Below, one piece after another: positions 2,341 to 5,744 of a DNA stretch of 5,744 nucleotides (position 1 is the stretch's first letter; every line of letters starts with the position of its first letter). The translations under genes were made by a program, and so were the position numbers. The notes beneath the pieces were generated by a model. The model was not told the DNA's origin, did not search any database, and saw only the letters and a program-made list of their open reading frames with translations. The DNA comes from a virus. Lineage: Duplodnaviria > Heunggongvirae > Uroviricota > Caudoviricetes. Location: IMG/VR virus record IMGVR_UViG_2529292908_000002. One strand, 5' to 3'.

Positions 2341-2437
2341 ATGAGCGAACAGTACCTGATAACGCTCGACGAGTGGAAACCAAAACGGTTCAGTCTCCCA
2401 ATAACAAACACTACCCTGGTGAAATACGGAAAACTAG
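2341..2437 (+). pseudogene. xis: Excisionase (lambda Xis family), 5' fragment (codons 1-32), interrupted by the IS5 insertion
   Basis: ATG at 2341 preceded by GGAG at 2329..2332. Translation MSEQYLITLDEWKPKRFSLPITNTTLVKYGKL resembles the lambda Xis N-terminus (MYLTLQEWNARQRRPRSLETVRRW...). The frame runs into IS5 and stops at 2458..2460, giving a 39-aa truncated product. Confidence 0.75.
2434..2437. repeat. Target-site duplication CTAG (left copy) of the IS5 insertion
   Basis: CTAG immediately abuts the left inverted repeat and is repeated at 3633..3636. IS5 is known to make 4-bp duplications at YTAR targets. Confidence 0.85.
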
Positions 2438-2453
2438 GGAAGGTGCGAACAAG
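2438..2453. repeat. IS5 left terminal inverted repeat
   Basis: GGAAGGTGCGAACAAG; matches the right end in reverse complement at 15 of 16 positions. Confidence 0.85.
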
Positions 2454-2460
2454 TTCCTGA

Positions 2461-3498
<1,038 letters not shown>

Positions 3499-3616
3499 CG
3501 CCAGAAATGGTGGAAAAAATAGCCTAAATAGGCTGATTCGATGTGTTTGCGGGAAAAAAATCGGCCCAGATCCGCGAAATTTTAATCAGCGAGTCAGCTT
3601 GGGAAGAAATGACCTG

Positions 3617-3632
3617 CTTATTCGCACCTTCC
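3617..3632. repeat. IS5 right terminal inverted repeat
   Basis: CTTATTCGCACCTTCC, reverse complement GGAAGGTGCGAATAAG. Confidence 0.85.
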
Positions 3633-3636
3633 CTAG
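3633..3636. repeat. Target-site duplication CTAG (right copy) of the IS5 insertion
   Basis: Directly follows the right inverted repeat and is identical to 2434..2437. Confidence 0.85.
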
Positions 3637-3809
3637 GATACATCGTTCCAAGACCACAAAAAATTCGTGGGCGTTGGCTGATAGATCGCCGAGCAGTATT
3701 TGTTGGGCCTGGTGAAACGGGAATTGCGCCGGAAATTCATACTGGCGATGATGATGCACTGAAGGAGATTTTAACTCATGTCACCGAGGCCACGAAAAAA
3801 CAGCACTGA
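3633..3809 (+). pseudogene. xis: Excisionase (lambda Xis family), 3' fragment, separated from its 5' part by IS5
   Basis: Frame from CTA GGA at 3633 gives LGYIVPRPQKIRGRWLIDRRAVFVGPGETG...KKQH, stop at 3807..3809. Removing IS5 plus one CTAG copy joins it in frame to 2341..2437, restoring an 89-aa Xis-like ORF. The 3' end overlaps the int start by about 30 bp, as in lambda. The Met at 3543 in the ORF track lies inside IS5 and is fortuitous. Confidence 0.75.
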
Positions 3810-4895
3810 CGTAGCCGGTCTTTACGAAAAGTTTGATCGCAGAACTGGCAGAGTTTACTACCAGTATAAAAATCCTGTGACTGGAAAATTTCACGGACTC
3901 GGAACAGACAAAGGTAAGGCAGAAAAAATCGCTTCCACAGCCAATCAGCGAATAGCTGCAGCAGAAGCTGAATATTTCATGCGCAAAATTGATGAAAGTC
4001 CGTCAGCAACAAAACGTCGGGGTATCAGATTAAAGGCATGGGTTGATCGATATCTGAAAATACAGGACACGCGACTGAAAAATGGAGATATTGCAGCTAC
4101 AACTCACAAAGAAAAACTCGAATGGCTGCATACCTGGTTTCCCGTCTGGGAAACCACCCATTGAAAGAACTGGAAGTAAGAGACTTTGCATTAATACTGG
4201 ATGAGTGGCTGGATAAAGACATGGTCAGCACAGCGAGAGTAAATCGTGGATTATGGGTTGATATTTATAAAGAAGCACAGCATGCAGGGGAAGTTCCTCC
4301 TGGATGGAATCCTCCGGAGGCTACCCGTAAACCGATCCCTAAAGTAACCAGAGCCAGGCTCACCATGGAAGACTGGCAAAAAATTTACAATGCAACGCCT
4401 GAAAAACACTTTATCCGTAACGCAATGCTTCTTGCGATTGTTACTGGTCAGCGCCGTGATGACATTTGCCACATGCGTTTTTCAGATGTGTGGAACGAAC
4501 ACTTGCATATCACCCAGGGAAAAACCGGAATGCGTCTGGCGTTACCGCTTACACTACGCTGTGATGCCATTGGGATAACGTTAAAAGAAGTTATTGATGG
4601 GTGCCGAGACAGAATATTAAGTCCATATCTAATCCATAGTCGGCACCAGAAACAACCGAAGCCGATGAGTAAAGACAACCTGAGCGACTACTTTGCCAAA
4701 GCACGGGATCTGGCTGGGATAATTCCACCAGCAGGAAAAACTCCGCCAACATTTCATGAACAACGCTCTCTATCAGAACGGCTGTACCGTGCACAGGGTA
4801 TCGATACAAAAACATTACTAGGACATAAAGTCCAGGCAACCACCGATCGCTATAACGATACTCGAGGTCAGGAATGGGTTAAGCTGGTTATTTGA
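3778..4895 (+). pseudogene. int: Lambda-type tyrosine integrase, frameshifted at about 4135..4150 (two ORFs, 3778..4164 and 4122..4895)
   Basis: N-terminal part (YQYKNPVTGKFHGLGTDK) resembles the lambda Int arm-binding domain (YCYRDPRTGKEFGLGRDR). C-terminal part aligns with the lambda Int catalytic domain: LAIVTGQRRDDICHMRFSDV vs lambda LAVVTGQRVGDLCEMKWSDI, PPTFHEQRSLSERLY vs PPTFHELRSLSARLY, LGHK...YNDTRGQEW vs LGHK...YRDDRGREW. The two halves sit in frames 1 and 3, overlapping at tggtttcccgtctgggaaacc; restoring one C or T in that run would give WFPRLGNHPLKEL, which aligns with lambda AIRRGLPDAPLEDI. Confidence 0.85.
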
Positions 4896-5119
4896 CAAAC
4901 ACCATATGGAATATCCGTCACCATCTCAGGAAAAAAGTGTTGTAAAATGCGTGGCCTAGTTTTGGGGAAACGTTTTGGAGAGATTTTGGAGAAAGGAAAA
5001 AATTGAATAAATTCAAAATCCTGAAAGTGCTCCACCTTATGAATAATCAGGTGATCCACTTCCCGGAGCACCACTGGAACCACCTGAAACAAATGTCATC
5101 GAATGGGTATGTGCACCGG
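4896..5119. other. Candidate phage attachment region (AT-rich, non-coding) downstream of int
   Basis: In lambda the att site lies just beyond the int 3' end. This 224-bp stretch is AT-rich, has no convincing ORF, and ends abruptly where J-like homology begins on the opposite strand. The core site cannot be pinpointed from sequence alone. Confidence 0.4.
4959..4995 (+). repeat. Three tandem direct repeats (GTTTTGGGGA / GTTTTGGAGAGA / TTTTGGAGAAAG), candidate integrase arm-type binding sites
   Basis: TTTTGGAGA occurs at 4973..4981 and 4984..4992 (11-bp register); TTTTGGGGA at 4960..4968. They sit about 65-100 bp past the int stop, which is where lambda has its tandem P' arm sites. Confidence 0.35.
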
Positions 5120-5744
5120 CTGTCCCCATGCATTTACCGCCCGGACTGTCAGCCTGTAATTTCCCAGCGCCAGCTGCGTGAAGCGATATGTGGTTTCCGT
5201 CGTCCGGGCCGTGCTGACCAACCGCTCACTGCCGTCGTCCGCTGCCACGGTCAGGCGAAGCATAAAGCTCACCCCCTTCACCACCTTCGGCGTGTCCCAG
5301 CGCGCCAGCACCTGGTATTCCCCGCTGTCTGCGGTGACTTCTGCGGTCAGGTGCTGAACTGCTGGCGGCGTGACACCATTCACCGTGCCGCTCTGGTCAC
5401 CGTCAAAGTGCGCCCCGTTATCAGTTCATCCAGCGCGGCTGCTTTGTTCATGGCTTTGATGATATCCCGTTTCAGGAAATCAACATGTCGGTTTTCCAGT
5501 TCCGGAAAACGCCGCTGCACCGACAGGGGATCCCGTCGAGAATACTGGCAATTTCACCTGCGATCCGCGACAGCACGAAAGTACAGAATGCGGTTTCCAC
5601 CACTTCAGCGGAGTCTCTGGCATTTTTCAGCTCCTGTGCGTCGGCCTGCGCACGCGTAAGTCGATGGCGTTCGTACTCAATAGTCCCTGGCTGGAGATCT
5701 GTCTCGCTGGCCTGCCGCAGTTCTTCAACTTCCCGGCGCAGCTT
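5120..5744 (-). pseudogene. Phage tail-tip / host-specificity (lambda J-like) gene remnant, 3'-truncated and frame-disrupted; continues beyond the window end
   Basis: Minus-strand translation of about 5120..5420 reads DNGAHFDGDQSGTVNGVTPPAVQHLTAEVTADSGEYQVLARWDTPKVVKGVSFMLRLTVAADDGSERLVSTARTTETTYRFTQLALGNYRLTVRAVNAWGQ, which matches a segment of lambda J as I recall it. Homology stops after NAWGQ at about 5120. Upstream (5420..5744) the protein-like reading frame changes twice (near 5420..5426 and about 5470..5480) and no longer resembles lambda J. Confidence 0.6.

Follow-up and report, generated by a model that had tools for sequence, protein, structure and literature searches.

What are the three short repeats that lie just past the integrase gene of this prophage, and which protein would read them? 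The 5,744-bp stretch of DNA analysed here, called the window throughout, represents the early-left end of a lambdoid prophage. A sequence-only reading had drawn attention to three adjacent imperfect direct repeats in an AT-rich, non-coding region downstream of int, and had likened them to the tandem arm-type sites that integrase (Int) binds in the P' arm of lambda attP. The repeats are real. A repeat search of the window returned one family, consisting of three 11-nt copies that start at 4960, 4973 and 4984 and show 82-91% identity when compared with the first copy. In the following list they carry the names that fit the interpretation developed below, with distances measured from the centre of the crossover.

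4960..4970, plus strand: outermost candidate arm-type site, P'3 equivalent, TTTTGGGGAAA, 73-83 bp from the crossover centre
4973..4983, plus strand: middle candidate arm-type site, P'2 equivalent, TTTTGGAGAGA, 60-70 bp from the crossover centre
4984..4994, plus strand: core-nearest candidate arm-type site, P'1 equivalent, TTTTGGAGAAA, 49-59 bp from the crossover centre
4938..4951, plus strand: block TGTTGTAAAATGCG, non-coding and conserved, past the int stop and ahead of the repeats
5003..5016, palindromic: TTGAATAAATTCAA, flanked by the arm sites on one side and by the core on the other

The array runs from 4960 to 4994, so that the earlier limits of 4959 and 4995 had placed it correctly apart from one base at each end. 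The start-to-start distances are 13 and 11 bp rather than 10.5 bp, and the helical-turn spacing first proposed therefore holds only approximately, although the 13/11 pattern itself is conserved in relatives. When both strands of the window were searched for TTTTGGRGA, exactly three matches were found, all of them in the array; 0.14 are expected, and in none of 200 dinucleotide shuffles were three matches reached. Tandem Repeats Finder did not report the array at its thresholds. The first repeat begins 65 bp past the int stop codon (4893-4895). The description of the setting as AT-rich and non-coding was borne out: the GC content of 4896-5039 is 37.5%, compared with 50% for the whole window, and the corresponding stretch is free of annotated CDSs in every annotated relative. 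The block at 4938..4951 and the palindrome are both shared by relatives of the potB/potC type (see below), and neither contains a match to the consensus for IHF. In lambda, the H' site for IHF occupies the position that corresponds to the palindrome.

The gene upstream of the repeats had been read simply as int. It is indeed an integrase gene, but in the window it is a frameshifted pseudogene, and the neighbouring xis is also disturbed.

42-2279: large exonuclease ORF
2341..2437, plus strand: 5' part of xis
2438..3632, plus strand: IS5-family element of 1195 bp inserted in xis, with a 4-bp target duplication, CTAG, at 2434-2437 and 3633-3636
3633..3809, plus strand: 3' part of xis, encoding an excisionase of the Pfam Exc family
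3778..4895, plus strand: int, here a pseudogene with a 1-nt deletion at 4112, for a tyrosine integrase of the lambda family whose N-terminal domain is of the arm-binding type

Over 3633-5046 the window and a prophage of E. coli O104:H4 2009EL-2071 agree at every base save the one missing at 4112, where a run of five A residues replaces six and shifts the frame between the arm-binding and core-binding domains. The intact Int matches PF09003 (Arm-DNA-bind_1) over residues 1-64 (E = 3.8e-21), and the N-terminal fragment encoded in the window does so over residues 1-65 (E = 5.9e-22). Residues 194-363 of the intact protein match the tyrosine recombinase catalytic domain, and residues 26-371 align with the lambda Int structures 1z1b and 1z1g (E = 4e-54). 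The full-length Int of E. coli O104:H4 has the accession WP_000074983.1. The IS5-family element splits xis after about 32 codons. An IS5-like element is also present in the same xis of an unrelated strain, XJW9B277 (L002), in the opposite orientation. Because int is frameshifted and xis is split, the system in the window is dead, and what remains of the recombination module is a relic in which the arm sites are intact.

To interpret the position of the repeats it is necessary to know where strand exchange takes place. Comparison of prophage ends with an unoccupied bacterial site, the route suggested for finding the core overlap, did locate it. The empty potB/potC site of K-12, the two O104:H4 prophage junctions and the window were aligned, and this yielded the crossover together with a flanking half-site.

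5040..5046, plus strand: 7-bp crossover (overlap) TGAATAA, the sole block common to attB, both O104:H4 junctions and the contiguous attP
5033..5038, plus strand: CACCTT, putative P'-side half-site of the core type for Int, seen in the attP ccaCACCTTaTGAATAAgAAGGTGagc that is contiguous in L097 and L098 and in the junction alignment

On its right, TGAATAA is followed by G in attP and at the potB-side junction and by A at the potC-side junction. Because this polymorphic base goes with the right-hand flank, strand exchange must fall within the 7 bp. The attP predicted from the junctions, ccaccttaTGAATAAGAAGGTGagcgaa, exists in contiguous form in two IMG/VR contigs, L097 and L098, in which the order is int, three repeats, core, P arm and a tail-fibre assembly gene. 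In this intact attP the overlap is bracketed by CACCTT and AAGGTG, which are perfect inverted copies of each other and are likely to be the core-type sites; in sequence they are unrelated to the TTTTGGRG motif of the arm. Two database records labelled as phages, vB_EcoS-640R1 and vB_EcoS-813R8, carry this int. The latter was considered as evidence for attP and rejected, since it is a prophage excerpt that includes potC and therefore does not show attP.

Intact relatives of the prophage sit between potB and potC, and in O104:H4 as well as in many other E. coli strains int adjoins potC. It may be noted that the P arm of the prophage replaces the last codons of potB, so that the protein ends in ...NKKVSELDD-stop as opposed to ...NKKVELE-stop (L003 992-1023, compared with L093, the 3' end of K-12 potB), and that potC retains its own upstream sequence, AAGGTGGAACTCGAATG, on the int side. 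The whole prophage therefore separates potAB from potCD.

Searching both strands of the prophage ends, which had been proposed as a check, revealed the same motif in the other arm of attP. In the O104:H4 prophage and in the attP of L097 and L098, the P arm contains TTTTGGAGAAA at +127..+137 and TTTTCGAGAGC at +141..+151, both sharing the strand of the P' repeats. The second of these copies is degenerate and is possibly not a genuine site. Within the 49.7-kb O104:H4 prophage region there are five exact matches to TTTTGGRGA, of which four fall within the two att arms, all on one strand.

We then asked how general this arrangement is. The survey covered 80 Int homologues with 39-77% identity, one genome per species, drawn from the Enterobacterales, Vibrionaceae and Aeromonadaceae. 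A triple repeat follows int almost everywhere in this set and its 13/11 bp spacing is conserved, but the repeated sequence is not the same at all loci. Four motif classes could be distinguished, TTTTGGRG at 19 loci (references included), TTTTGCAG at 21, TTTTGATAA at 13 and TTTTACTG at 5, with the proviso that the search expressions fix several positions, so that columns which appear invariant are partly so by construction. All 19 members of the TTTTGGRG class possess three copies, spaced by 13/11 bp in 16 cases, by 14/11 bp in two and by 13/12 bp in one, and the core-nearest site (4984..4994 in the window) is kept in all 19. Every tandem match lies downstream of int on the int strand, with none elsewhere in the loci of approximately 4 kb. 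Fourteen loci were initially scored as lacking a cluster, and in eight of these one was subsequently found. In L020 it lies directly after the true stop codon of a frameshifted int, and in the other seven it is located 0.65-1.35 kb past the int stop, which suggests that cargo genes have been inserted between int and the P' arm. Loci in which the repeat is displaced from int include L008, L027, L029, L050, L074 and L082, and in e14 (L096) the distance is 3.5 kb. A recognisable tandem cluster within 1.5 kb of int was absent from six of the 80 loci. Seven loci are listed as lacking one, namely L014, L021, L043, L045, L063 and L070, which have a full-length int, and L084, in which int is truncated. 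Two of them, the Proteus loci L043 and L045, share a beta1 sequence, LYTTYHPRMRK, that is unlike those of the four classes, and they may use a fifth motif.

Additional evidence that the repeats are preserved apart from their surroundings was obtained when the region was compared by blastn with phage records: in Klebsiella phage ST13-OXA48phi12.4 only the repeat region matched. The Int of this phage is 43% identical, the prophage abuts dcp, and 57 bp after int it carries TTTTGGGGAAAAG TTTTGGAGGGA TTTTGGGGAAG. The triple repeat has thus been kept while the flanks diverged beyond detection by blastn. In each of the two prophages checked for a second arm, Klebsiella phage Kp4865-4 (class TTTTGATAA) and PPompW (class TTTTGCAG), a class-matched site is present at the other prophage end. 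On two points the earlier proposal could have failed, namely if the motif were missing from the att regions of related phages or if the region were coding in homologues. The motif is found next to int even in relatives whose integrases are only 43-44% identical and that use other bacterial targets, and the region is non-coding in the annotated homologues.

The existence of several motif classes provides a means of asking which protein is responsible for reading the repeats. Each class is accompanied by a distinctive sequence in the beta1 region of the Int N-domain: LY.K[LF]D[KR]R in the TTTTGGRG class, LSCYTDAR in the TTTTGCAG class, LYPL.SRK in the TTTTGATAA class and LFCF.DPR in the TTTTACTG class. 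When Int residues 10-42 were compared, the nearest neighbour belonged to the same motif class in 57 of 58 cases, and the column with the highest mutual information with motif class was residue 18; this covariation spans about 70 relatives and is confounded by shared ancestry, as int, xis and att are co-inherited. Since the three are inherited together, only mosaics can separate the candidate binders, and four were recognised: phage 21, L069, L030 and L080. When phage 21 is compared over Int(10-42), each of its eight closest sequences is of the TTTTGGRG class, whereas the eight nearest Xis sequences are all of other classes, as are all of the nearest catalytic bodies with an assigned class. The N-domains of L030 and L080 show the same trend clearly and that of L069 more weakly, with four of its eight nearest N-domains in the TTTTGGRG class. 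Motif class follows the N-terminal beta-sheet region of Int and not Xis or the catalytic body. This pattern favours the Int N-domain, rather than Xis, as the probable reader of the motif. The mosaic cases further indicate that arm and core specificities are exchanged as modules. Bodies that target icd are found with all four arm motifs, and at least three different targets are represented among integrases with TTTTGGRG. As a separate observation, the class of the arm and the site targeted (icd, potB/potC, dcp, ompW and others) are mixed independently of each other across the loci surveyed (L007-L086, L087, L088, L090 and L096).

Based on these results, we conclude that the repeats are very probably arm-type sites in the P' arm, bound by a heterobivalent tyrosine integrase that is lambdoid and belongs to the phage 21/e14 family. 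Other explanations must be weighed against this one. One is that the repeats are binding sites for Xis, the excisionase or recombination directionality factor. Xis proteins bind short head-to-tail repeats located tens of bp from the core, for example X1-X1.5-X2 in lambda, and a head-to-tail array with spacing of about 11-13 bp, situated 50-85 bp from the core, resembles such an arrangement. An xis of the Pfam Exc family adjoins int, and Xis is co-inherited with the sites, with a nearest-neighbour class purity of 47/53. Yet the motif is also present 127-151 bp out in the other arm, and the Xis sites of lambda are confined to one arm. The mosaics also speak against Xis: in all four the closest Xis relatives come from other motif classes, and by their Int N-domains these elements fall mostly in with the TTTTGGRG class. 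Further, members of this class carry at least three very different types of Xis. Taken together, we regard the assignment to Xis as very unlikely.

Also very unlikely, in our estimation, is that the repeats bind host IHF or Fis or have a regulatory role, whether as promoter, as terminator or as a 3' structure in the int mRNA. The repeats do lie in an AT-rich region of an att arm in which lambda has IHF and Fis sites, and in normal lysogens transcription of int crosses them in the direction of potC. No match to the IHF consensus WATCAANNNNTTR was found in 4896-5060 with up to one mismatch, however, and neither a sigma-70-like promoter nor an intrinsic terminator was detected in 4800-5200. The predicted RNA fold is no better than that of shuffled sequences (z = +0.81) and there is no credible Rfam match. 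If a host protein were the ligand, the occurrence of four motif classes among the same host genera, in some cases with the same icd target, would be difficult to accommodate. There is, finally, the notion that the repeats are a chance low-complexity feature or belong to a small gene. Runs rich in G/A and in T are common in intergenic DNA, and a mechanically called ORF of 74 aa on the minus strand (4868-5092) does span the region. This ORF crosses the recombination junction and so cannot exist in relatives in which int adjoins potC; the absence of an annotated CDS, noted above, points the same way. With the shuffling result, the conservation of the 13/11 spacing across relatives and the persistence of the triple repeat despite diverged flanks, this explanation is effectively refuted.

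If the repeats are arm-type sites, the following picture may be drawn by homology with lambda. In a functional relative, the N-terminal domain of Int (residues about 1-65) would bind the TTTTGGRGRRR sites and would also bind one or two like sites in the other arm, while the same protomers would use their catalytic and core-binding domains to bind CACCTT/AAGGTG around TGAATAA. The resulting bridges between arm and core would fold attP into a complex able to recombine with the potB/potC junction. Physical binding by Int, and a requirement for the sites in recombination, are what the comparative data would lead one to expect. A broader proposal is that four interchangeable arm "words" share one rigid 13/11 architecture, are paired with distinct beta1 hairpins (residues about 16-22) and are shuffled independently of the core and the target. 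We consider the chances of this to be about even.

The DNA on the other side of the crossover requires separate comment, since past GAATAA the sequence does not run on into potC, and the window and the potC-type junction part ways at 5047-5048.

5047..5744, minus strand: target-side DNA, a remnant of the Qin cryptic prophage (junction of the stfQ' and J' fragments, then nohA), not potC

In 5040-5053 of the window (and in L004, 5996-6015), the P' arm meets the stfQ'/J' remnant precisely at the 7-bp overlap (tttaGAATAAtcAGGTG). The Qin site reads tttaGAATAAtcAGGTGatcc, attB reads ctgcTGAATAAaAAGGTGgaac and the window reads cttaTGAATAAtcAGGTGatcc. An AGGTG at 5049-5053 resembles the B' half-site, and the shared identity is limited to 6 bp together with an AGGTG half-site. 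With the breakpoint located at the overlap and only 6 bp in common, the event looks like Int-mediated recombination with a secondary attachment site in the Qin remnant, as opposed to homologous recombination. The int/Qin junction was absent from 5,426 complete E. coli genomes and from IMG/VR. Insertion of the whole prophage and a rearrangement would both produce the junction seen here, and the reciprocal junction, tgtatttaGAATAAGAAGGTGAGCGAATTAG, that bears on the distinction lies outside the window. The intQ gene of the K-12 Qin prophage was considered as the origin of the int in the window and rejected, as similarity at the DNA level does not extend past the exonuclease gene.

For general biology these conclusions change little, since arm-type sites are textbook knowledge from lambda and the motif is already annotated for phage 21. 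What they provide is a fixed attP anatomy (arm sites, core half-sites and TGAATAA) for a widespread group of lambdoid prophages at potB/potC in E. coli, Citrobacter and Enterobacter, and they show the element in the window to be a decayed prophage end joined to the presumed secondary site in Qin. If this interpretation is true, the window also preserves the record of an insertion by Int into a secondary att site that belongs to another prophage. The family-wide table of arm-site class against N-domain sequence could guide specificity-swap experiments, and if residues 16-22 are the determinants, it would amount to a natural recognition code for arm binding by Int.

It remains to compare the locus with known systems. 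The resemblance to the lambda P' arm that was first noted is confirmed in position: three adjacent head-to-tail sites lie on the int-proximal side, with P'1-P'3 of lambda 54-83 bp from the centre of the overlap compared with 49-83 bp here. Lambda likewise has further arm copies more than 100 bp out in the distal arm (in NC_001416, P2 at -112..-103 and P1 at -142..-133, compared with +127..+137 and +141..+151 here), a homologous integrase with the same N-terminal domain, and a 7-bp overlap between inverted core-type sites. The differences are equally clear. The lambda arm consensus, around C/AAGTCACTAT, is unrelated to the sequence found here, in agreement with the original remark that the motif departs from it; the spacing of the lambda sites is 10/10 bp rather than 13/11 bp; P2 is inverted with respect to the other lambda sites, whereas both P-arm copies here are direct; the lambda P' sites abut and overlap the int stop, whereas here they begin 65 bp past it; and lambda has an H' site for IHF, whereas none is detectable here by the IHF consensus.

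The different arm specificity that had been anticipated turns out to have a counterpart in phage 21. In GenBank OL657228.1, a misc_feature at 27563-27599 states that "attP consists of 3 subsites P1P2P3; consensus YYTTCCCCAAAA", and this consensus is the reverse complement of TTTTGGGGAARR. When the 12-mers of the window are reverse-complemented and aligned with it by eye, GTTTCCCCAAAA agrees at 11 of 12 positions, ATCTCTCCAAAA at 9 of 12 and CTTTCTCCAAAA at 11 of 12. To judge from these matches, the motif in the window is the arm motif of phage 21. After int, phage 21 carries TTTTGGGGAAGGG TTTTGGGGAAAG TTTTGGGGAAG, and its distal arm carries TTTTGGGGAAAGATTTTCTCTAC. In the int sense its motif is TTTTGGGGAAG, compared with TTTTGGRGAAA here; there are again three tandem copies, spaced by 13/12 bp as against 13/11 bp; the distal arm again possesses one consensus copy with a degenerate TTTTC... 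neighbour; and the integrase is again a PF09003 protein with the same beta1 signature, LY.K[LF]D[KR]R. On the other hand, the phage 21 Int is only 44% identical, it recombines inside icd with an attP that contains a long replacement for the icd 3' end (the potB/potC boundary and TGAATAA being used here), the repeats start 12 bp rather than 65 bp past the int stop, and two of the three copies in the window have A at the fourth G position (GGAG). The type of site is thus shared with phage 21 while the integration module is different, in that the Int is not an orthologue with the same target. In full-text searches on phage 21/e14 arm sites, on potC-integrating phages and on the motif, no account emerged of where the arms of these integrases are bound or how their att sites are built, and a paper on helper-embedded satellites concerned a different integrase clade and was set aside. 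"Repeated dodecamers", suggested as arm recognition sites, were reportedly referred to or used by Wang et al. in J Bacteriol in 1997, S. J. Schneider having proposed those of phage 21 for this role. Prior knowledge of the motif in phage 21 rests in our account on the annotation of OL657228.1.

The e14 cryptic prophage of E. coli K-12, which carries intE and has its attachment site in icd, belongs to the same integrase family and possesses a triple repeat with 13/11 bp spacing near its attachment site. It differs in its motif, which is TTTTGATAA (L096 1451-1490) rather than TTTTGGRG, and in the presence of three cargo genes, ymfD, ymfE and lit, between intE and the arm. Phage 21 (L087 2064-2100) and e14 share the icd site, and their arm motifs are TTTTGGGG and TTTTGATAA, respectively. 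Phage 21 and e14, with a common core site, are reported to excise each other poorly, and their different arm classes would account for this. If the recognition code discussed above is true, it would explain how two elements with a single attB avoid cross-excision, and it could be used in the design of orthogonal integrases.
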